Program-made: the position numbers and the translations under genes
Shown: piece after piece, positions 29,202 to 47,447 of the stretch
Numbering within the stretch: position 1 is the stretch's first letter
Layout: every line of letters starts with the position of its first letter
The notes under the pieces: model-generated
The model's database searches: none
What the model was told of the DNA's origin: nothing
Seen by the model: the letters and a program-made list of their open reading frames with translations, nothing else
Source: Terriglobia bacterium
Lineage (GTDB): Bacteria > Acidobacteriota > Terriglobia > JAJPHL01 > JAPKYU01
DNA: 64,000 nucleotides
Direction: 5' to 3'
Assembly (NCBI GenBank): GCA_965223005.1
Contig: CBDCVK010000002.1
Coordinates: 320,001 to 384,000 of the forward strand

Positions 29202-31127
29202 TCACAAAATAACTCGGTCGTTGCCCACCCGCCGCGTGACTCGTTCGCGGTCCAGATACTCCAGCAAGGGAATGGCGTACTTGCGACTGATGCAGGCCAG
29301 GTCCTTGAAGCTGGACACGTTCAGCCGGTCGCTCCGCGCTTTGTAGTGTGCGAGCTGCGCGCGCAATCGCTCGATGGCGCTGCGGTGAAACACCAGCTCC
29401 TCGCTCACCTTGACCAGCACCAATTCCTTGATCAGGATTCGCAGAATCTTCTGAGCGCGCTGCGACTCGACCGGCAATTTCCCCAGCACTTCTTTGACCG
29501 AGGGCACCGTCAGCCCGGCGTTTCCAAACGCGGCGGTGATCCGCTGCTTCGCCTGCTCTTCTTCCTCGGTGAGGACAATCCGGCGCCCGGCCTGCTTGAC
29601 AATCTCGCCCTGAGCTTCCAGGCGGCCTTCGGCCGCCAGGCGGGCCAGCGCCGCCTCGAAGACCAGCGGCGACAGGCGGCCGAAACTGCGGTCGCGGAGT
29701 TCCTCCTTTGGGATGCCGGGCAGCAGCGGGTTGGCGGCGTGAAATTGCTCGACAAGTGCTGTCGCTTCCGCCAGCAGCCCGCGGAACCGCTTGCCATGTG
29801 CCAGAACCAGCGGCGAGTCCGACAAAATCTCGACTTTCTTCTGCCGGGCCAGCGCGCCTGCCGTTTCGCGCAGCTCGCTTTCCAGCCAGCCGGTGCGAGC
29901 GATCAGTTGCGACGCGGCGACAGCCGGCTCCCCGCGCTGGAGCACCGCCAGTAGGACTTCCTCCCGGGACCCGGTCTCTAGAATCTTCAGGAATTCAGCC
30001 GCGTTTCCTCCCGTGCCTGACCTGGCGCGTCTGGGTGAAGCTTGATTGTCCAGCACGCGCCCGCCGCCGATGGTGATGACCGGCGAGAACTGCCGGATGA
30101 TGAACCGGTCGCCGGGCAGCAGCAACGTCGGTTCTCGCAGAAGGAGTTGGGCGTAGCTGCTGCTGCCCGGCTCCAGCTTTTCCATTCCCGTCCCCAGGCG
30201 CACTTCAGAAACGACCGCTGCTGTCCCACAGTGGAAATGCACGCGGGCGCGGTGTTTCAGAGGCCGGACTGAAGGCAGCAGGTGCAGCAGCGTCTCGATG
30301 CGCTGGGTCGGCTCAAACACGCCTGGCGCCGCCAGGGTCATCCCGCGCTCGAGCTCCGCGAGCTCGATGCCGGCCAGGTTCAACGCGGTGCGCTGTCCAG
30401 CCAGCGCGCGCTCGGCCGGCTGGCCGTGCACCTGGATGCCGCGGACGCGCAGCCGCCGGCGCGTCGGAAACAGTTCCACTTCGTTGTCCTTCGTTAGCGT
30501 GCCGGAGACCAGGGTGCCGGTAACCACCGGGCCAAAGCCCTTCATCACGAAGGAGCGATCAACGGGCAGGCGGAAGTGGCGCGAGGAGTCCTTCGCCGGC
30601 GCCGCCGCGGCCAGGCGGGCCAGTTCCGCCCTCAGCCGGTCGAGGCCTTCGCCGGTGCGCACGCTCACCGGAACAATGGGCGTCCCGGCAAGAAATGAGC
30701 CGCCGACGAACTCCTCCACCTCCAGCCGCACCAACTCAACCAGGTCGCGGTCCACCAGGTCGGTTTTGGTCAGCGCCACCAGGCCACGGCGCACGTCCAG
30801 CAAGCGGCAGATGTCGAAGTGCTCGCGCGTCTGGGGCTTGATGGACTCGTCCGCGGCCACCACGAACAGCACCAAGTCAATGCCGCCGATGCCGGCCAGC
30901 ATGTTCTTCACAAAGCGCTCGTGGCCCGGAACGTCCACGAATGCCAGGCGCAGCACGGGGCGGTCTGCCTGCGCCGGGATCTCCAGGTGCGCGAAGCCCA
31001 GGTCAATGGTGATGCCGCGTCGCTTCTCCTCAGCCAGCCGGTCGGGGTCGGTGCCGGTCAGCGCCTTGACCAGGGCGCTCTTGCCGTGGTCAATGTGCCC
31101 GGCCGTGCCAACAATGACGTGCTTCAT
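29202..31127 (-). CDS. selB: Selenocysteine-specific translation elongation factor
   Basis: GTAGHIDHGKS, RGITIDLGFA, DVPGHERFVKNM, C-terminal winged-helix SRKYAIPLLEYLD. Confidence 0.97.
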   Translation of the reverse strand: MKHVIVGTAGHIDHGKSALVKALTGTDPDRLAEEKRRGITIDLGFAHLEIPAQADRPVLRLAFVDVPGHERFVKNMLAGIGGIDLVLFVVAADESIKPQTREHFDICRLLDVRRGLVALTKTDLVDRDLVELVRLEVEEFVGGSFLAGTPIVPVSVRTGEGLDRLRAELARLAAAAPAKDSSRHFRLPVDRSFVMKGFGPVVTGTLVSGTLTKDNEVELFPTRRRLRVRGIQVHGQPAERALAGQRTALNLAGIELAELERGMTLAAPGVFEPTQRIETLLHLLPSVRPLKHRARVHFHCGTAAVVSEVRLGTGMEKLEPGSSSYAQLLLREPTLLLPGDRFIIRQFSPVITIGGGRVLDNQASPRRARSGTGGNAAEFLKILETGSREEVLLAVLQRGEPAVAASQLIARTGWLESELRETAGALARQKKVEILSDSPLVLAHGKRFRGLLAEATALVEQFHAANPLLPGIPKEELRDRSFGRLSPLVFEAALARLAAEGRLEAQGEIVKQAGRRIVLTEEEEQAKQRITAAFGNAGLTVPSVKEVLGKLPVESQRAQKILRILIKELVLVKVSEELVFHRSAIERLRAQLAHYKARSDRLNVSSFKDLACISRKYAIPLLEYLDRERVTRRVGNDRVIL

Positions 31128-38905: not shown

Positions 38906-39875
38906 TTAGACCCAGTACATGGTCACGGGGCCGTCCAAACGCTTGCACACCTGGCCGGCGTCCTCCATCAGGTCCAGGTGGGCGAAGACTTCCGAGATGG
39001 CCAGGAACATCGAAGAAGTGCGCGCCTGTGGGAACAGACAGGCGGAGAGCTCAAAAACCGTTTGTTCCTTATGCCGTAGGCATTCGAGGAGACGGCCCTT
39101 GCGCTTTTCATGGTGATGGACTAGTTGATCGTGCCATTCCGGGTAGCTCGTCACTGGCTCCCCGTGCCCGGTGTAGATAACAGCCGGACTCAGTTGCCGA
39201 ATTCGCTGGAGGCTTTCCAGATACGCCCCTAAAGCGGGGAAACGCAGCCGCGGCGAGGTCCGGTCCAGGCTGAGCATGGGATTGGGAGTGATGTTCCGTA
39301 ACACGGTGTCGGAAGAGAGCAGAACGCGCCGGGACGGCTCAAAGAAAAAAAAAGCTGCCCGGCGTGTGCCCCGGTGTGGTTACCGCCTGAAATTCCACCG
39401 GGCCGCATGGCAGCGGGCCCAATTGCTCAACGGGCTGATACTTCTCCAGCGGCTCGGCCAGGCCACGCAGCGCCGTGATTCTCTCCCACATGACGCGCTG
39501 CGCCGACTCTAGCGTGCCGGCCTGCTCCAGCATGGAGCGGTAGAAGTCGTCCAACCGCTCCTGATGGTGGCTGAAATATAACCCGTCCCGGGGGCTTGCA
39601 TAGATTGGTGCACCTGAGCGGCCAGCCACCGCCCGGGCCAGTCCGTAGTGATCCACGTGCCCGTGGGTCACCACGACCTTCTTTAACTGCTCCAGGCGCA
39701 AGCCAGCCTCGCTCATCAGCTTCTCCAGCAAGTCCAGGGTTTCCTGCATTCCGGGACCGGTATCCACCAGCACCGCTTCCGGCTCGGTCACCAGGTACAC
39801 GTTCACCGGGCCCACCGGAAACGGAGTGGGCAGCTCCAGCCGATACAGCGGCAGGTCCAGCAGTCGTTCGATCAT
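38906..39875 (-). pseudogene. MBL-fold metallo-hydrolase split by a +1 frameshift in a T9 run (phase-variable, pseudogene or sequencing error)
   Basis: The 5' part has PTPFPVGPVNVY, VDTG, THGHVDHYG and TPGHTPG. Removing one T at 39345-39353 continues in frame to FEPSRRVLLSSDTVLRNITPNP...YLESL...IYTGHG. Confidence 0.85.
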
Positions 39876-41707
39876 GTTTCGCCGTAAAGCGATTCCACCG
39901 CGTCGCGATATTGTTGCTCCACCGTCCGGCGCCGGATTTTCATCGTTGGCGTCAGTTCCCCGGATTCGATCGAAAAATCGCGCTCCAGCACGACAAAACG
40001 CTTGATCTGCTCAAAGCGAGCTAGGTCGGCGTTTACCGCGTCCACTTCCCGTTGCAGCAGCGCGCGCACCTGCTCGTGGCGCGCCAGCTCGCCGGGGGAG
40101 CTGCAAGGCAGGCCGCGCTGCCGGGCGAATTCCGCCAGCCTGTCGAAGTTGGGCACCAGCAGGGCGACCACGTACGGACGCCGGTCGCCCACCAGCACCG
40201 CATTGAGCAGATAGGGACAGGCGCACAGTCGGTTCTCGATGGGCTGAGGTGCGACGTATTTGCCGCCGGCGGTTTTCAACAGGTCCTTCTTGCGATCGGT
40301 GACGCGCAGCTCGCCACCGGGGGTGAGCTCACCAATATCACCGGTATGGAACCATCCATCCTTGACCACGTGGGCGGTTTCCTCCGGCTGGTTATAGTAG
40401 CCCTTCATCACGTTCGGCCCCCGCACCAGAATTTCGCCGTCCTCCGCGATCCGCACCTCAACCCCAGCTAGGGGCCTGCCCACTGTTCCTGGGCGGTTGT
40501 GCCCGGGAACATTGGTGGCCACCACCGGTGAGGTTTCTGTCAGGCCGTAGCCCTCGCAGACCGTCACGCCGGCAGCATTGAAGAATTCCGACAGCGCTGG
40601 CGATAGCGGAGCGCTGCCGGAGAGAAAGAAACGGATGCGGCCGCCGAGCCGGGCACGCAAGCGACCGAACACCAGCCGCTCAGCCAAAGCGTGGCGCAGC
40701 GACAGGCCGGTGGGTAACTGCTGGTCGGCCACGCGGCGGCGCAGGGCCTGCTGCCCGACACCCACGGCCCACCGGAACAGCCAGCGCCGTGGCGCGGGCG
40801 CCTGGCGCACGGCATCCATCACACGGCCGTGCATCTTCTCAAAAAAGCGTGGAACGGCGGCCAGCACCGTCGGGCGCACCTCCAGCAAGTTCTGGGACAC
40901 TGCCTCGATGCTTTCCGCGTAGGCAATGGGCACATCGTTGTACAGGTAGGTGTAATCCACCATCCGTTCATAAATGTGGGCCAGCGGCAGGAACGATAGG
41001 GCCAAGTCGTCGGGCTGAAACAGGTTCGCCGAAGCCAGCACGTTGGAGACGATATTGGCGTGAGTGAGCATCACTCCCTTGGGTGTGCCGGTGGTACCCG
41101 AGGTGTAGATGATGCTGGCAAGGTCTTCCGGGCGCACCGCCCGAGCCGTCTGCTCGAATCGCGCCCCTTCCGCCGAAGCCATCGCCGCGTCCCCGACCAG
41201 ATCTCGCCAGGCCAGCTGACGTTTCTCGTCGGCATCGTCCGAAAATGGGCGGAAGGGGGCGGCGCTGATGGGCACCCCTTCCATCGCGACGGCCCAACGC
41301 AGCCGCGGCAGCCGGTCCCAAACACTGCAAATCTTTTCCAGCTGGGCTTTGTTGGAGACCACGATGCCGCAGGCGCCCGAATCCTGAAGGATGTACTCGC
41401 AAGAGTGCGCCGGCAAGGTGGGATAAAGCGGGACCGTGACGCCGCCGCGGCCCAGGATGCCAAAATCGGCCACCGCCCATTCCGGCCGGTTCTCCGACAG
41501 CAACGCCACACGATCTCCGGGCACGACACCCAGCCGTTCCAGTCCTCGGGCCAGCCACACCACCTGGCGGAACATTTCGCGCGCCTGGATCGAGACCCAG
41601 GCGCCCGCCCGTTTGTGCCGCAGCATCTCGCGATATTCGCGCCCGGCGATCTGCAAGATGATGTCGTTGAGCGTCCGCAAGGCAGAGGTAGGAGTTTCGG
41701 CTGCCAT
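39872..41707 (-). CDS. fadD: Long-chain fatty acid--CoA ligase
   Basis: IIYTSGTTGTPKGVMLTH, FLPLAHIYER, EGYGLTETSP, GWFHTGDIG, DRKKD, LTPTMK. Confidence 0.9.
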   Translation of the reverse strand: MAAETPTSALRTLNDIILQIAGREYREMLRHKRAGAWVSIQAREMFRQVVWLARGLERLGVVPGDRVALLSENRPEWAVADFGILGRGGVTVPLYPTLPAHSCEYILQDSGACGIVVSNKAQLEKICSVWDRLPRLRWAVAMEGVPISAAPFRPFSDDADEKRQLAWRDLVGDAAMASAEGARFEQTARAVRPEDLASIIYTSGTTGTPKGVMLTHANIVSNVLASANLFQPDDLALSFLPLAHIYERMVDYTYLYNDVPIAYAESIEAVSQNLLEVRPTVLAAVPRFFEKMHGRVMDAVRQAPAPRRWLFRWAVGVGQQALRRRVADQQLPTGLSLRHALAERLVFGRLRARLGGRIRFFLSGSAPLSPALSEFFNAAGVTVCEGYGLTETSPVVATNVPGHNRPGTVGRPLAGVEVRIAEDGEILVRGPNVMKGYYNQPEETAHVVKDGWFHTGDIGELTPGGELRVTDRKKDLLKTAGGKYVAPQPIENRLCACPYLLNAVLVGDRRPYVVALLVPNFDRLAEFARQRGLPCSSPGELARHEQVRALLQREVDAVNADLARFEQIKRFVVLERDFSIESGELTPTMKIRRRTVEQQYRDAVESLYGET

Positions 41708-41760
41708 CCAGGGCCTTTTACTCTAGCAACGAAGGACGGATGTGCGCAATGAATCCGTAT

Positions 41761-42201
41761 TCATTCCCGCCCAGATGGTTCTGCTTGCTTCGTTTTGGGA
41801 ATGTCGCGGAGCAGTTCGAGGATATGGCCGCGCAGTTCATCACGGGCGCGACGGAAAGCCTGCCGCACCTGTTCGGGCGATCCCGTGCTGGCGGCCGGGT
41901 CGTCCACCGGCCAATGCAGCCGGCGCACGTTGCCCGGAAACACGGGGCACTCGCGCGCCGCATTGTCGCAAACGGTTATGGTCAGATCTGGATCGGCCGG
42001 CACCTCGACCAGTCCTTTGGAGCGCTGGCCGGAAATGTCCCGCCCCAACTCGGCCATCACGGCGACCGCGTGCGGATTCAAGCCCACGGGTCGCGTCCCG
42101 GCGCTGTAGACCTGCCAGTCGGCCGGCCCGAGCGTCCGCAAGAGTCCCTCGGCCATCTGGCTGCGCGCCGAATTGCCGGTGCAAAGAAACAGGACTCTCA
42201 T
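41761..42201 (-). CDS. arsC: Thioredoxin-type arsenate reductase (LMW-PTP fold)
   Basis: LFLCTGNSARSQMAEG P-loop, SAGT, TVCDNAARECPVFPG redox Cys pair, HW..DDP. Confidence 0.88.
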   Translation of the reverse strand: MRVLFLCTGNSARSQMAEGLLRTLGPADWQVYSAGTRPVGLNPHAVAVMAELGRDISGQRSKGLVEVPADPDLTITVCDNAARECPVFPGNVRRLHWPVDDPAASTGSPEQVRQAFRRARDELRGHILELLRDIPKTKQAEPSGRE

Positions 42202-42235
42202 TCGTGGTAATCCCCTTCTCTGGGCAGTATATCTT

Positions 42236-42286
42236 CAGGAGGCACACTGCGACAGGAGGCACAGTGCGACAGGAGGCACACTACAG
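42236..42286. repeat. 3 x 17-bp tandem direct repeat upstream of arsC
   Basis: caggaggcacactgcga / caggaggcacagtgcga / caggaggcacactacag. Confidence 0.9.
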
Positions 42287-42341
42287 CGCGCCGCTGGAGT
42301 CGCTGCTGCTGACCCCTGGGCGTCCGCAGGAATCCGATCTT

Positions 42342-42875
42342 CTATTCCGACTGATCCACGGACGTCCAGCGCTCGACGCTTAGCCCCGGCGGTTTGTCAG
42401 CGTGCGAGGGATGCAGCTTTCCGGAGACGCGCAGCCGCTTTCCCAGCAGGTCGCGGCGCTTCCTGATTTCGTCAATTTTTGCACCGCCAGCCAGGACGAA
42501 TTGCCGCGGCCGGCCCGGCATCACAAGCAACAGCAACTCGTCTTCTAGGGTGAGAGTTCCGGCCGCAGTTACCTCGATTTCCCGTGGCGAGAAGCCGGCA
42601 TCTCTTATGGCTTTGGGAATCCTGGTCGGGTCGAAGCTTTTGTCCTTCGCCGGCAGCACGATCCCCTGGCCGCTTTTCAGCTCTACCTTGACTTTGCCGA
42701 CGCCTTCCAGGCGCCGCAGGGCCTTTTCGGCCCCGTAGGCTCAAAGCGGTCAAACCATCCCGTCTATTCGCACTGCGGCCTTTTCGATTTGTGCGGCCAA
42801 GGGCACCGCCTCCGTGAGCCAGAATACGCTCAAAAGCGCCGCCGAAAAGATTGTCCTCCGAACCTTGCTGTTCAT
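42342..42875 (-). CDS. Predicted exported HMA-domain (MerP/CopZ-like) selenoprotein with UxxU motif (Sec42, Sec45), 177 aa
   Basis: AGGAGG SD and ATG at 42875 (ATGA overlap with the NHL gene). Translation MNSKVRRTIFSAALLSVFWLTEAVPLAAQIEKAAVRIDGMV[TGA]PL[TGA]AYGAEKALRRLEGVGKVKVELKSG...IPKAIRDAGF is in frame with ORF 42342..42659. The TGAs at 42750-42752 and 42741-42743 occupy the Cys positions of GMxCxxC. Confidence 0.88.
42699..42740 (-). promoter_or_regulatory. Two tandem candidate bacterial SECIS hairpins immediately 3' of the UGA codons
   Basis: GGGGCC-GAAAA-GGCCCU (42718-42734; loop 21 nt after UGA1) and GGCGCC-UGGAA-GGCGUC (42699-42715; loop 31 nt after UGA2). Each has a G in the first two loop positions. 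Folded by eye. Confidence 0.6.
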
Positions 42876-43834
42876 TTCTGCCTCCTTGCCACCACCTGCA
42901 ACTTAATGATGCGGTTATTGGCAGCATCGCTGACGTAGAGAAATCCCTGCCCATCAACCGCCAGCCCCTGGGGCGACTGGAACTTCGGACCGGCGCGATC
43001 CGGCACGGACCATTCGGCCAGATAGTTGCCTTCCGCGTCGAGCCATTGCACACGGTAGTTGCCGCTATCGGCCACATGCAAGTACCCGTTCTCGTCCACC
43101 ACTACGTCGGTGGGGTCCTGAAACTGCCCGTGCCAAGTGCCTGAGGTTCCCCACGCTGCCAGAAACTTTCCCCCGGGATCAAACTTCTGCACACGGTAGT
43201 TGTGGGCGTCGGCGACATAGACGCTGCCGTCGGAAGAAATGGTGAGCTTGGCCGGATAGTGCAACTGCCCTTTCGCTTGCCCGTCCTCGCCCCAACTGGC
43301 GAGAAACTTCCCCTCCGTAGAAAATTTCTGCACCCGGTGGTTGTAGAACTCGGTGACGTACACATTGGCCTCCGCGTCCACCACCACACCGGCCGGCGCG
43401 GAGAATTCCCCGTGGCGCTGCCCAGGGCGGCCCCACTGGCGCAGCAAGAGCCCTTCCCGGTCAAACACCATCAGGCGATCAAGCATGAAGTCCACTACGA
43501 AGATTTCGTCCCTGGGGCCCACCGCGACGTCCACCGGCTTGCGTAACTCGCCGCGCCCCTCTCCGCACGCCCCCCAGGTGCGGAGAAATTGACCTGTGCT
43601 AGCAAATACTTGTACGCGGCAGTTCCCGGCGTCGGCCACGTAGACCGCTCCCTCCGAATCCACCGCTAAGCCTTGCACGCTGTCGAGCTGGCCCGGCCCC
43701 TTGCCGGGCGTACCCCATTGCGTCACCACGCGGTAGTGAGGCCCGGCGGGCGCAACCGGAGGCGCTGGTTCCTGGGTGCACGCCCCGAGCAAGGCGGCCA
43801 GCAAAGTCAGCAAGCTGAGCCTTGTCCGAATCAT
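42872..43834 (-). CDS. NHL-repeat (6-bladed beta-propeller) lipoprotein
   Basis: Lipobox LLGAC; six repeats of WG..G.G.GQ/E..P..VAVD..G.VYVAD..N.RVQ.F. Confidence 0.9.
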   Translation of the reverse strand: MIRTRLSLLTLLAALLGACTQEPAPPVAPAGPHYRVVTQWGTPGKGPGQLDSVQGLAVDSEGAVYVADAGNCRVQVFASTGQFLRTWGACGEGRGELRKPVDVAVGPRDEIFVVDFMLDRLMVFDREGLLLRQWGRPGQRHGEFSAPAGVVVDAEANVYVTEFYNHRVQKFSTEGKFLASWGEDGQAKGQLHYPAKLTISSDGSVYVADAHNYRVQKFDPGGKFLAAWGTSGTWHGQFQDPTDVVVDENGYLHVADSGNYRVQWLDAEGNYLAEWSVPDRAGPKFQSPQGLAVDGQGFLYVSDAANNRIIKLQVVARRQK

Positions 43835-44697
43835 TAGAACAACCAGCGGAAGCCAATGATGAAGCTCGAAGCGGGCTTGATTTGCGAGCCGTTCAGGTCC
43901 CGTCCGACCGGAATGGGCGAGGAGAATTCCAGCACCATGCGATTGGACACGATGAACTCAATTCCCGGCGAGAAGAATAGCAGGTTGCCGCCGGTGTCGG
44001 GCAGCTGCATGCCATTGAGCCGAGCCCGACGAACGTGTGCCCCGTTTAGCTCCAGCACGAGCATCACGCTGGGGATGCCCAGACCGTTGCGGGGCAGCAG
44101 GCGGTAGAGGTAGGCAAGGTCGTAGTTCCAGCTGTTACCCCGGCGGAGACCGTCGTTGCCGGTTGTCGTGTAGGTGAATTGGGTGTCAGCGATCAGCCAG
44201 TGGGGGTCGCGAATATGGGAAAAGATGAGCGCGCCGATGGGGTCGGTCGAGCCGGTGCCAAAGGCCCCCCCACTGGGCACCTTCAGCCCGATTTCCGGCG
44301 AGAGCCGAGTGTATCCCCCAGGAACCATTTTGCGCAGCAGGTCGTAGCGGGCGAACACGGCGCTATCGGCAAAGCTGGTGGTAGTAAAGTCGCGGGCGGG
44401 GAGGCTGGGTGCCTCGCTCTGGAGGCTCACCAGCGGGGCCACGAAGCTTAGGCTCAGATGGGGATAGGCGCCCCAGACAACCGCATAGGGATTGGTGGTG
44501 CGGCGCAACCGCAGCCCGGGCACCCCTTCGTCGAAGTTGTCGATGCGCACGAAGCTGCGGAACATCACCGCGCGGTTGAACAAGGTCCGTCCCGCTGAGG
44601 CAACGATCTGGGGCTGGGCCGTGGGACACAGGAACAGCCAGCAACCAAGCAGAGCGATCCTCGTCAGCGTGCGGCCCATATCCCCGGTTCGGTTCAT
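43834..44697 (-). CDS. Putative outer-membrane beta-barrel channel (MetA-pathway/'transporter'-like)
   Basis: Signal peptide; FADSAVFARY, GLKVPSG, GTGSTD, LELNG, DTGGNLLFFSPGI; amphipathic strands; C-terminal GFRWLF with terminal Phe. Confidence 0.7.
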   Translation of the reverse strand: MNRTGDMGRTLTRIALLGCWLFLCPTAQPQIVASAGRTLFNRAVMFRSFVRIDNFDEGVPGLRLRRTTNPYAVVWGAYPHLSLSFVAPLVSLQSEAPSLPARDFTTTSFADSAVFARYDLLRKMVPGGYTRLSPEIGLKVPSGGAFGTGSTDPIGALIFSHIRDPHWLIADTQFTYTTTGNDGLRRGNSWNYDLAYLYRLLPRNGLGIPSVMLVLELNGAHVRRARLNGMQLPDTGGNLLFFSPGIEFIVSNRMVLEFSSPIPVGRDLNGSQIKPASSFIIGFRWLF

Positions 44698-44893
44698 GCG
44701 TCACGCTCATCCCCCACCTGCAGCGCGCATCCGGACACTGGTAAACCCCACCTTGTTTCAGGGTATCACCGGCTTGGAGGAATCAGAAGGAGCTTACCGC
44801 GGCCGTAAGGTTCGAGAAGGATTTTTACCCGTGAGAAGAAGAGCCGTGCGCTAGCTGGGATTCCACCGCATCTGGTCGAGCGAAAGCAGGATG

Positions 44894-45151
44894 TCACGTG
44901 CGAGGAGAAGCGATGCGCCGAAGCACGTGCGGCGGTCCTTGGACCGGGATCTGGCCACCCTCCCGTTGGTCCAGCACCTTCCGGCGTTGGTCCAGCACCT
45001 TCCGGATAGTTACGCGCTGGCGCTCCAGAGTCCGCGATTGGTGCAGGTTCACACTTAAAAGCAGGGCCAGTGCTGCCAGCAGCATGGCGATCACAACCCA
45101 CTTGCCGCCGCACGGCTTCGACTTGATTCGTTTCAGTGTCGCTCCCAGCAT
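44894..45151 (-). CDS. Putative small single-TM protein with duplicated RKVLDQR
   Basis: MLGATLKRIKSKPCGGKWVVIAMLLAALALLLSVN...; starts 14 nt after the stop of the 41-aa ORF. Confidence 0.4.
   Translation of the reverse strand: MLGATLKRIKSKPCGGKWVVIAMLLAALALLLSVNLHQSRTLERQRVTIRKVLDQRRKVLDQREGGQIPVQGPPHVLRRIASPRT
44964..45005. repeat. Perfect 2 x 21-bp tandem duplication
   Basis: cgttggtccagcaccttccgg x2. Confidence 0.9.
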
Positions 45152-45164
45152 TTTTCCGGTCGCT

Positions 45165-45290
45165 TCATCTGCGCTTCCGACCGCTGGGGAGCAACCGCAG
45201 CACGCGGCCGTGATGCTCGGTTTGCTGGCGGAACCAGTAGACGGTGAGGCCAAAGCCAACCCAAATTGCTACCATCGCTATCGCAATCAT
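45165..45290 (-). CDS. Putative 41-aa membrane peptide
   Basis: GGGAGG/GGAG SD-like sequence upstream; MIAIAMVAIWVGFGLTVYWFRQQTEHHGRVLRLLPSGRKRR (one TM helix plus basic tail). Confidence 0.45.
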   Translation of the reverse strand: MIAIAMVAIWVGFGLTVYWFRQQTEHHGRVLRLLPSGRKRR

Positions 45291-45548
45291 TTCTCCGTTC
45301 CTCCCAGGTCTAGGTCCAGTCCGGTTTCTCCCGGCGTCCTGCTCGATGCGATCCACCGGGAACTGTTCTGGCCCTGTATACTCAGATGCACGCCAGACGA
45401 AGTGGGTTTCAGGCGAGAGGAACAGTCGAGTTTGAAAAGTCTTGTAACTCCTGTTCCCTCTGAAGCATCTCAGTGATCAGTCAGAAACAGAGGGAAATGC
45501 GCATCGACCCGGGTCGTCCGTGCGCATCCGGGTCGCCATGCATATACA

Positions 45549-47447
45549 ATGGTCGTTCAAGTGCTGACTTCCAGAGCGAACGTGCACCGCATCCTCTCCG
45601 CCTTCGTATTATTCCTGCTGTCGAGCCCGCTGCTGGCCCAGGAGCTGCGGCTTCCCCTCCAGGGAGACTCGCTGCGCTTCGCAGTCATCGGCGACGCTGG
45701 TACGGGCAAGCGAGCTCAATATGAGGTGGCCGAGCAGCTAGCGCTGTTTCACCGGAAATCTTCCTTCGAGCTGGTTTTGATGCTTGGAGACAACCTGTAC
45801 GGGGGAGAAGGTCCGGGCGATTATAAGAAGAAATTTGAACTGCCCTACAAGCCGCTCTTGGATGCTGATGTCAAGTTTTATGCTGCGCTGGGCAATCACG
45901 ACAATCCCAAACAGCGTTTTTATTCCCTGTTCAACATGGACGGCAAACGGTTTTACGAATTTCGGCCCGCGCCGCAAGTCCAGCTCTTTGCGCTCGACAG
46001 CACTCGCATGAACCAGGCTCAGTTGAGTTGGCTGGAGGAGGCGCTGCGTAGCTCCGGCAGTCGGTGGAAAATTTGCTTCTTCCACAAGCCGATCTATTCA
46101 TCCGGGAAAAGGCACGGCTCCTCAATGAAGCTGCGCCGAAAACTGGAACCGCTTTTTGTGAAGTACGGGGTCAATGTCGTCTTTGCCGGTCACGATCATG
46201 TCTACGAGCGGCTCAAGCCCCAGAACGGCATTTACTACTTTGTCAGTGGAGCTGCCGGAAAATTGCGCAAGGGGAACGTCCGTAGGACCAACTGGACTGC
46301 CAAAGCATTCGACACGGACCGTCATTTCCTGCTGGTGGAAATCGCGGGCGACAAACTGCATTTTCAGGCGGTTTCGAGGACCGGCGAAACCGTTGACTCT
46401 GGGGTCCTCGTGCACCCGGGTTCCGCGCCAGCTTCTGCTGAGGAGGTCGCCGCGGCTGGCCAGCGGCCCGCTCAGTCGTTGGCGCTACCTGGCGAGCGCC
46501 ATTTGAAGAACATCCGCCAGCTCACCTTCGGCGGCCAGAACGCGGAAGCTTATTTTTCGCCCGACGGCAAACGGATCATTTTTCAGGCCACCCGCGACGG
46601 CCTGAAGTGCGACCAAATCTTCATCATGAACACGGACGGGTCCGACGTGCGCATGGTCTCGACCGGCAAGGGGCGTACCACCTGCGGCTACTTTCTGCCC
46701 GACGGCAAGCACTTCCTCTACGCCTCCACCCACGAGGCCGGCACCGAGTGTCCCCCGCGGCCCGATCGCAGCCGCGGCTACGTCTGGCCGATCTATTCCG
46801 GCTACGATGTCTACCTGGCCCGCGATAACGGGAAAATCGTCCGCAAGCTGACCGACCAGCCCGGCTACGACGCCGAGGCCACGGTGAGCTGGGGCACTGG
46901 CAGGATCGTCTGGACGGCGCTGCGCGAGGGCGACCTGGACATGTATTCGATGGACCTGGCCGGGAAGCATGTGAAGCGACTGACGCACAAGCCGGGCTAC
47001 GATGGGGGCGCCTTCTATTCGCCTGACGGAACCAGGCTCGTCTGGCGCGCTCACCATCCCGCCGGCACCTCCGCCCTGGCCGACTACCGCAGCCTGCTGG
47101 ACCGGAACCTCACCGCTCCCATGAAGATGGAACTGTTCGTGGCTGATGCCGACGGCCTGAACCCGCGCCAAATCACTTCATTCGGCTGTGCCAGCTTTGC
47201 TCCGTTCTTCACCCCCGACGGCCGCAACATCATCTTCTCCTCCAACAAGAACCGCTGCGACAGCCGGTTTTTCGAGCTGTTTCTGGTGAACACGGATGGC
47301 AGCGGCCTGGAGCAGGTGACCCGCTCAGGCGGCTTCAATTCCTTCCCGGTGTTTTCCCCCGATGGCAAGAAGCTGCTGTTTGTGTCGGACCGCAACGCCC
47401 GCGAGCGTTACGAATTCAACATTTTTATTGCCGATTGGCAGCCCTAG
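45549..47447 (+). CDS. Exported calcineurin-like metallophosphoesterase fused to a TolB-like PD40 beta-propeller
   Basis: GDAG, GDNLY, GNHD, FHKP and GHDH motifs, then RQLTFGGQNAEAYFSPDG and further SPDG/TPDG repeats. Confidence 0.85.
   Translation: MVVQVLTSRANVHRILSAFVLFLLSSPLLAQELRLPLQGDSLRFAVIGDAGTGKRAQYEVAEQLALFHRKSSFELVLMLGDNLYGGEGPGDYKKKFELPYKPLLDADVKFYAALGNHDNPKQRFYSLFNMDGKRFYEFRPAPQVQLFALDSTRMNQAQLSWLEEALRSSGSRWKICFFHKPIYSSGKRHGSSMKLRRKLEPLFVKYGVNVVFAGHDHVYERLKPQNGIYYFVSGAAGKLRKGNVRRTNWTAKAFDTDRHFLLVEIAGDKLHFQAVSRTGETVDSGVLVHPGSAPASAEEVAAAGQRPAQSLALPGERHLKNIRQLTFGGQNAEAYFSPDGKRIIFQATRDGLKCDQIFIMNTDGSDVRMVSTGKGRTTCGYFLPDGKHFLYASTHEAGTECPPRPDRSRGYVWPIYSGYDVYLARDNGKIVRKLTDQPGYDAEATVSWGTGRIVWTALREGDLDMYSMDLAGKHVKRLTHKPGYDGGAFYSPDGTRLVWRAHHPAGTSALADYRSLLDRNLTAPMKMELFVADADGLNPRQITSFGCASFAPFFTPDGRNIIFSSNKNRCDSRFFELFLVNTDGSGLEQVTRSGGFNSFPVFSPDGKKLLFVSDRNARERYEFNIFIADWQP

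Follow-up and report, generated by a model that had tools for sequence, protein, structure and literature searches.

Genes at the locus

This analysis concerns three minus-strand genes in the window, a 64,000-nucleotide stretch from the genome of a Terriglobia bacterium (Acidobacteriota; contig CBDCVK010000002.1, positions 320,001 to 384,000 of the forward strand). They encode a predicted outer-membrane barrel (43834..44697), an NHL-repeat lipoprotein (42872..43834) and an exported protein (42342..42875) that carries a heavy-metal-associated (HMA) domain followed by an OB-like domain. Within the HMA domain, two in-frame TGA codons, very probably read as selenocysteine (Sec, U), occupy the positions of the metal-binding cysteines. 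The TAA stop of the barrel gene (43836-43834) and the ATG start of the NHL gene (43834-43832) have one base in common, and the TGA stop of the NHL gene (42874-42872) overlaps the ATG of the HMA gene (42875-42873); by the look of these junctions the three genes are a translationally coupled set.

The original prediction, made from the letters of the window alone, had given these coordinates and both stop/start overlaps, and they were confirmed on the sequence. It had also described a barrel ending in Phe, a six-bladed NHL propeller with an LLGAC lipobox and an exported UxxU HMA protein, all of which were borne out (C-terminus RWLF; Pfam NHL and HMA matches). An arsC gene about 140 bp further on in the same direction was found where it had been placed (41761..42201, minus strand, after a 140-bp gap), and the statement that no MerR/ArsR regulator, P-type ATPase, MerA or MerT is adjacent held over the 24 neighbouring open reading frames (ORFs) that we scanned (19.4-58.0 kb).

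When the TGA codons at 42752-42750 (Sec42) and 42743-42741 (Sec45) are read through, and only then, the HMA gene is open over 177 codons and reads MNSKVRRTIFSAALLSVFWLTEAVPLAAQ and then IEKAAVRIDGMVUPLUAYGAEKALRRLEGVG..., giving a signal peptide recognised in the sequence, an HMA domain with U42-P-L-U45 at the first and second metal-binding Cys positions, and the C-terminal OB-like beta domain. With C written for U, the protein passed the Pfam HMA model (PF00403; 35.8 bits, E 1e-8, cut-off 24.8). Its AlphaFold2 (AF2) model, also built with C for U (mean predicted local distance difference test score, pLDDT, 85.9), has a classical HMA domain at residues 30-100 and a small beta domain at about 96-172. 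The secondary structure is beta-alpha-beta-beta-alpha-beta (strand 30-38, helix 43-54, strands 59-65 and 70-75, helix 83-92, strand from 96), and the metal loop joins strand 1 to helix 1. The top Foldseek match of this model was MerP of Ralstonia metallidurans (PDB 1osd; E 3.8e-5, TMt 0.83), and MerP, CopZ and ATPase HMA domains matched with TMt 0.75-0.89. NCBIfam returned CopZ as the top match (44.4 bits), NF041115 UxxU_metal_bind (39.2 bits, cut-off 95) and MerP (TIGR02052; 31.8 bits, cut-off 92.55); all three are under their cut-offs, and the protein thus fails NF041115 with a U-x-x-U present at its HMA metal site.

The C-terminal domain led Foldseek to OB folds (the anticodon-binding domains of LysRS/AspRS, and Stn1-Ten1) and gave weak Pfam matches to DUF4431 and DUF5818 (E 0.003 and 0.03). 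One orthologue (L066, 3034-3759) runs on into an extra C-terminal DUF5818 domain (E 9.9e-12), and NCBI names a related fragment 'DUF5818 domain-containing protein, partial'. The LHPSHAD motif of the OB-like domain might be a second metal site, which we offer as an idea only.

The barrel protein has 287 residues, with a signal peptide read from its sequence. It scored below threshold against Pfam PF13557 (19.2 bits, cut-off 22), a domain that some of its orthologues do carry. The best PDB match of its AF2 model (pLDDT 82.1) was the COG4313 channel Pput2725 (4rl8; E 1.5e-11, template modelling score 0.66-0.70), followed by FapF (5o67), and on this model the protein is predicted to be a 12-stranded outer-membrane channel of the COG4313/FapF kind. 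COG4313 channels are 12-stranded barrels with the N-terminus in the lumen (PMC4493636, in its excerpted text). In the window protein, model residues 20-36 have pLDDT <50 and the mature N-terminus, QIVAPAGRTLFNR, is strongly conserved. Its relatives fill 128 database clusters at E<=1e-20; among the 120 matches listed, every named one is a 'hypothetical protein', from Acidobacteria or Terriglobia.

The NHL protein (320 residues) matched Pfam NHL (PF01436; 139.9 bits, E 6.6e-42) with five stretches above the cut-off, and six D/E-x-x-N-x-R-V/I-Q blade motifs are visible in its sequence, as in a generic six-bladed propeller. Its lipobox, L-G-A-C19, was found by pattern match, and a Cys stands at this position in 10 of the 11 orthologues whose N-terminus is aligned. 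A cluster of His residues (H166, H211, H253) or the Cys72/Cys90 pair, kept in 10 of 12 aligned orthologues, might bind metal, again as an idea only. A complex prediction for barrel and NHL protein from database hits returned a score of 0.00, which speaks neither for nor against an interaction.

Probable selenocysteine at the HMA metal site

Gene-finding programs end their calls at the two TGA codons. In public protein sets the selenoprotein has 62 relatives, each of them a fragment spanning no more than 68% of the query, under names such as hypothetical, 'heavy-metal-associated domain-containing' and 'DUF5818, partial'. The TGAs could on this basis be plain stops, in which case there would be no selenoprotein and the HMA frame would be a decayed gene. 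We regard this as highly improbable, since 18 genes keep both TGAs together with the residues on either side, conservation extends upstream to the signal peptide and first strand, a covarying hairpin follows the TGAs and the genome has the full Sec machinery. Cys homologues are without this hairpin. Thus, both TGAs are very probably Sec codons, and the evidence is as follows.

The source genome (10 contigs, 96.3% complete) has tRNA-Sec, SelA, SelB and SelD. The gene for SelB (29205..31127, minus strand), the Sec-specific elongation factor required for decoding both TGAs, lies within the window too, with 11 kb separating it from the selenoprotein gene, and is flanked by mutS2 and purB-like genes. 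The SelD gene (G000:C10:916629-917552, minus strand) holds one in-frame TGA and thus encodes the selenoprotein form of SelD. The genome also has a second exported HMA selenoprotein (L071, G000:C8:205387-205635, plus strand), a single domain with the motif GMTUNACAS (UxxC), and one P1B ATPase, which lies far from the module; Pfam scans around these two genes were uninformative.

A six-frame search with the read-through protein matched 21 of 61 related genomes, and 16 of the 27 matches listed hold one or two in-frame TGAs. Of 401 genomes in the phylum, 277 matched a profile built from 11 read-through proteins, a number to which ordinary ATPase HMA domains contribute; by hand count, 40 of the 150 matches listed have a TGA. 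(The 401-genome tallies include three unpublished genomes, G083, G106 and G205, which were only counted.) Without exception, the read-through homologues have TGA either at the first HMA metal-binding Cys codon or at both (GITUxxC, FGMDUxxC, GMxUxxU). The 42 full-length HMA-OB genes divide into 18 with UxxU, 18 with UxxC, 5 with CxxC and 1 irregular; U42 and U45 align with the CxxC of L038-L042, the first TGA lines up with a TGA in 36 other homologues, and the second TGA is present in 18/18 members of the UxxU group.

The two UGAs are 9 nt apart. A hairpin resembling a Sec insertion sequence (SECIS) begins 14 nt past the first (42717..42735, minus strand; 7-bp stem, GAAAA loop), and hairpin onset is at 11-15 nt in all read-through homologues. 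For comparison, the UGA of E. coli fdhF is followed 11 nt later by the minimal SECIS hairpin. A second hairpin (42699..42715, minus strand) spans the RRLEGV codons. With the 18 UxxU genes aligned in register, the two helices are 91.5% paired, and shifting the partner by 1-3 columns lowers this to 29.5-46.2%; both sides vary in 8 of 13 pairs, and none of 500 shuffles matched the observed pairing or covariation. Most of the covariation is in helix 1 (6/7 pairs vary on both sides). Helix 2 is 100% paired with 2/6 pairs varying on both sides, and overlaps the conserved RLEGV codons. It is kept where the peptide becomes RQSGV or RQAGV (L047, L061) and occurs in UxxC genes too; it may serve the second TGA or may merely mirror the coding sequence.

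For the 30 nt around helix 1, the mean fold energy falls from -5.8 kcal/mol in CxxC rows (n=9; eight are HMA genes that share these loci, and the ninth is a motif matched by chance in the window) to -9.6 for UxxC (n=20) and -12.4 for UxxU genes (n=18). For this contrast the Mann-Whitney p is 3e-5, a significance that is overstated because the rows are kin. Rfam at gathering thresholds gave no match in the window. The TGAs are covered by contigs of public runs from two studies with no differences (X1 record 2; X2 records 14 and 15; X5 record 21), so they are not assembly slips, with the proviso that the X1 run may be the source sample. The UxxU HMA protein of the original prediction is thus a genuine candidate for a bis-selenocysteine protein, on the strength of the Sec machinery, the conserved TGAs and the covarying hairpin.

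Gene neighbourhoods in relatives

For the gene context we examined 20 loci around six-frame hits, 20 around the best full-length TGA-bearing profile hits and 8 reached independently through the barrel alignment, the last from Acidobacteriota metagenome-assembled genomes (Terriglobia, Candidatus Acidiferrales, Solibacteraceae). Context counts omit the weaker second hits L031, L033, L034 and L036, and L068, on the same contig as L043, was counted once. A barrel gene lies on the same strand within 1.3 kb of the HMA-OB gene in 30/42 cases, or 25/37 without the five rows fetched through the barrel. An NHL orthologue adjoins 11 of the 42 HMA-OB genes, and L063, where the contig ends inside the HMA gene, brings the NHL loci to 12 (44-72% identity to the window NHL protein). 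In all of them but two the order is barrel-NHL-HMA; L049 has barrel-HMA-NHL, and L044 has no barrel and an Hsp20 gene upstream. Seven of the eight barrel-found loci are barrel-NHL-HMA(UxxU). The eighth (L069:5052-8251) has a 55%-identical barrel orthologue without NHL or HMA, beside a TIGR03169 oxidoreductase (344.7 bits, above cut-off) of a family named for its position N-terminal to SelD.

Elsewhere, a TlpA-like reductase adjoins the HMA-OB gene (4/42), or a MerT-like membrane protein with a UU or CC pair replaces the barrel (5/42). In a quick IQ-TREE maximum-likelihood tree of the HMA-OB proteins, the NHL-linked members form one clade of 12 rows (SH-aLRT 98), in which the sole NHL-less member is on a short contig, and the TlpA-linked and MerT-linked proteins each form a clade of their own (SH-aLRT 99 each). 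On these counts and clades, barrel and HMA-OB form the core. What stands third depends on the subfamily and is NHL or a TlpA-like reductase, or else a MerT-like protein that replaces the barrel. Because the window's trio recurs in 11 other loci, the three-gene arrangement is more than chance. The view that the three genes are a unit, which non-co-occurrence in other genomes would have undone, therefore stands, with the trio together in 12 loci.

Several relatives are worth describing individually. L024, from a genome of the same genus (G001), apparently occupies the same chromosomal spot beside an acyl-CoA synthetase gene (compare window 39875-44697) and has a barrel, an HMA gene with GMTUNFU and a TlpA-like reductase, with no NHL and no arsC. 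L025-L029 (e.g., L029:7530-8821) combine a MerT-like membrane protein that has a U-U pair (APSUUVLPQ) with a UxxC HMA-OB protein and no barrel; L029 additionally has a NifU_N/IscU-like protein. In genome G053 (L037:7810-8340), an HMA-OB gene with GLTUPLC lies behind a MerR regulator and a barrel and has a frameshift after the metal loop, which makes it a pseudogene or a sequencing error.

The arsC-like gene of the window encodes a low-molecular-weight-phosphatase-type protein (LMWPc) in which a CX5R loop, Cys7 (CTGNSARS), Cys78 and Cys85 were recognised by inspection, at a spacing that we take to be that of pI258 ArsC. It scored 130.2 bits against TIGR02691, the thioredoxin-coupled ArsC (cut-off 174.3). 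The 140-bp gap between selenoprotein gene and arsC holds a 17-bp unit (CAGGAGGCACACTGCGA, plus strand) repeated 2.8 times (42236-42282), just upstream of the arsC start, that could be an operator or leader element. Placed 140 bp downstream on the same strand, arsC invites the reading that the module handles a metalloid or chalcogen (As, Se, Te) with arsC as working partner, and the TIGR03169 neighbour of the L069 barrel points the same way. We give this reading very little weight: arsC adjoins 1 of 42 HMA-OB genes, that of the window alone, and encodes a cytoplasmic type of enzyme; L069 lacks both NHL and HMA; and there is no ars transporter or ArsR near the window module. On its distribution, arsC appears to be a chance neighbour outside the conserved module, contrary to the original prediction, which had made it part of the system. 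That prediction had also proposed a role in handling a soft metal or metalloid. Here the two halves part: the metalloid half is weak, because of the single arsC adjacency, and the soft-metal half gains from the neighbours that the relatives keep.

These neighbours were surveyed by Pfam and NCBIfam scans of 214 flanking ORFs at 40 loci, with short or overlapping ORFs omitted. MerR-family regulators directly adjoin the module in L037, L046, L050, L053, L056, L065 and L070, and one lies about 3 kb off in L030. MerT or MerTP fusions occur in L046, L050, L063 and L066, with MerTP upstream of the module in L063 and L066. In L050 the order on one strand is MerR-MerT-HMA ... HMA-barrel-HMA(U). Thus, the layout is less foreign to mer operons than had first been claimed, as the module in relatives directly adjoins MerR-family regulators, MerT or MerTP. 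Two Cys residues are invariant in all eight regulators, one where the dimerisation helix begins and one in a C-terminal CP[LIM]I motif. For the four scanned with NCBIfam (L030, L037, L065, L070) the best model was MerR(Hg), below cut-off, with CadR, ZntR and CueR close behind. A Cys at that helix position reportedly marks divalent-ion sensors, as described by Changela and colleagues in 2003, and CueR is said to have Ser there. Because the regulators carry the helix-start Cys, Hg(II)-class metals are favoured for the regulated loci, with copper a serious alternative.

In the copper alternative, the Sec-HMA protein would pick up periplasmic Cu(I) arriving through the channel and deliver it to cuproenzymes, much as Sco/PCuAC does with TlpA. 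The copper-type neighbours are a multicopper oxidase (L023), a YHS protein (L024), CopB with DUF1775 (L056), CusB-type and RND genes (L046, L050), a cupredoxin (L050), a CsoR/RicR-like repressor (L063) and zf_CopZ (L046). In L023, L024 and L047 the gene immediately after HMA encodes a TlpA-like reductase, in L061 such a reductase stands beside the barrel, and CopZ, as noted above, is the top NCBIfam match of the window protein. Copper acquisition or delivery is a possibility to be taken seriously, if an unlikely one for the window itself. The NHL clade to which the window belongs has no adjacent TlpA or copper gene except the CsoR-like gene in L063, its regulators (L065, L070) resemble MerR/ZntR/CadR-type sensors with the helix-start Cys, and L063 and L066 have MerTP upstream.

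The TlpA-type thiol-disulfide reductases that adjoin one subfamily also bear on a further alternative, in which the U-x-x-U pair would cycle between diselenide and diselenol and exchange electrons with an envelope partner (the NHL protein or a channel substrate). Known prokaryotic selenoproteins are probably for the most part redox proteins (PMC9312934, abstract), and UxxU is found in Prx-like oxidoreductases as well, according to reviews. The fold and the motif, in contrast, are those of HMA metal binders, and the neighbours of the relatives are metal sensors and transporters. We know of no redox enzyme with an HMA-type fold, and a redox role seems doubtful to us on balance.

The surroundings of the module in the window are housekeeping genes (AlaRS, RecX, isocitrate/isopropylmalate dehydrogenase, acyl-CoA synthetase, MetE). 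A promoter and terminator scan of 41600-45600 found no promoter-like site and two terminator-like sites, fewer than in shuffled sequence. A tblastx comparison against nine relatives revealed no conservation in the 1.2 kb that precedes the barrel gene (a single match, E=0.004), and no MerR-type operator palindrome was found in that 1.2 kb. A small ORF upstream of the barrel gene (44894-45259, minus strand) has a C-C-G-C cluster and one membrane helix and holds a perfect 21-bp tandem duplication (44964-45005; RKVLDQR twice); it too was unconserved against the nine related loci by tblastx.

Proposed function and comparison with known systems

We give roughly even odds to the reading that the trio is a self-contained envelope module dealing with thiophilic (soft) metal ions. 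Handling of such metals is the best reading because the module in relatives adjoins MerR-type regulators, MerT/MerTP and copper genes. The reduced U-x-x-U pair would clamp a two-coordinate soft metal in the periplasm, most likely one of the Hg(II) class and possibly Cu(I), Ag(I) or Cd(II), and would bind it more tightly than any thiol site. The OB-like domain and the NHL lipoprotein would keep the binder at the channel, and the barrel would be the route by which metal species cross the outer membrane. Since the source genome is without MerT, MerA and a metal-type MerR, the module cannot supply a mer-type import-and-reduce pathway there. In this genome we therefore favour a protective role, with metal captured in the periplasm and removed outward, rather than import followed by reduction; this direction of traffic, which sequence does not reveal, and the part given to the propeller are inferences.

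Several observations weigh against soft-metal handling, or against mercury as the metal. MerT has no match in the source genome (96% complete), the best MerA model hit there is 339.5 bits, under the cut-off of 454.45, and no metal-type MerR was found in it; the 24 scanned ORFs around the module likewise hold no metal regulator, transporter or reductase. The metal is not identified by family membership, because the regulators and the MerT/MerP relatives are all under NCBIfam cut-offs, and the copper genes and TlpA-like reductases at some loci point to Cu rather than Hg. The barrel alignment has no invariant Cys, His or Met. COG4313 channels are linked to hydrophobic organic molecules (TcpY, SphA) and not to metals in the excerpted text of PMC4493636, and the predominance of redox functions among prokaryotic selenoproteins counts here too. 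Also, the loci, spread over several Acidobacteriota families, are related and were picked from the best-scoring hits, so the locus counts overstate their independence.

Only tentatively, we propose that the module represents a class of metal system not recognised before in the envelope of Acidobacteriota. Its periplasmic metallochaperone, obligately bis-selenolate, would work with its own outer-membrane channel and propeller lipoprotein and without MerA, MerT, RND pumps or a dedicated sensor. If the soft-metal reading is right, the periplasm of abundant soil bacteria would hold a two-selenolate metal site that binds Hg(II) and Cu(I) far more tightly than the thiols of MerP or CopZ. Selenium supply would then be tied to metal tolerance (mercury or copper) and to mercury cycling in soils. 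A COG4313-type channel would gain its first role in metal traffic, a new kind of cargo for a poorly understood family. The gap in annotation is systematic, with the selenoprotein relatives present only as fragments and the named barrel orthologues listed all 'hypothetical protein', and a three-gene module is small enough for direct testing.

The Sec HMA site itself is of a known kind, predicted in silico. Two reviews list UxxU HMA proteins as 'putative mercuric reductase', UxxU; MerT-family selenoproteins are mentioned in the excerpted text of a preprint (10.1101/2022.07.06.499078); and NCBIfam already holds NF041115 UxxU_metal_bind and NF045683 'MerT/CopZ fusion-like selenoprotein'. The selenolate chaperone of the original prediction is accordingly sound as a candidate Sec binder and is not new as a kind. 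In full-text literature searches, whose coverage leaves out most subscription journals, we found no exported HMA-OB selenoprotein described together with an NHL lipoprotein or an outer-membrane channel.

Among known systems, MerP (TIGR02052; PDB 1osd, 1afi) is the best structural match and is alike in being exported, in its ferredoxin-like HMA fold and in having its metal site at GMxCxxC. Unlike MerP, the window protein has two Sec ligands, an extra OB-like domain and outer-membrane channel and NHL partners, in a genome without MerT and MerA. In the Pco/Cop and Cus copper systems (PcoB/CopB, CusF), a periplasmic soft-metal binder is paired with an outer-membrane protein, as in the window module, and CopB and CusB-type genes lie near some of its relatives. 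These systems differ in that Pfam gave no homology between barrel and CopB, the window locus is without an RND pump or membrane-fusion protein, and the ligand is a selenolate.

The barrel resembles the COG4313 channels (Pput2725, TcpY, SphA) and FapF in its 12 strands and its size (about 270-320 residues), whereas the known members are tied to uptake of hydrophobic organics or to amyloid secretion, with no metal-binding partner described in the excerpted text of PMC4493636. NF041115, the 'metal-binding (seleno)protein', is likewise a predicted selenoprotein and an HMA domain with U-x-x-U. The NF041115 model is a 74-residue single domain; to this the window protein adds a signal peptide, the OB-like domain and its envelope partners.

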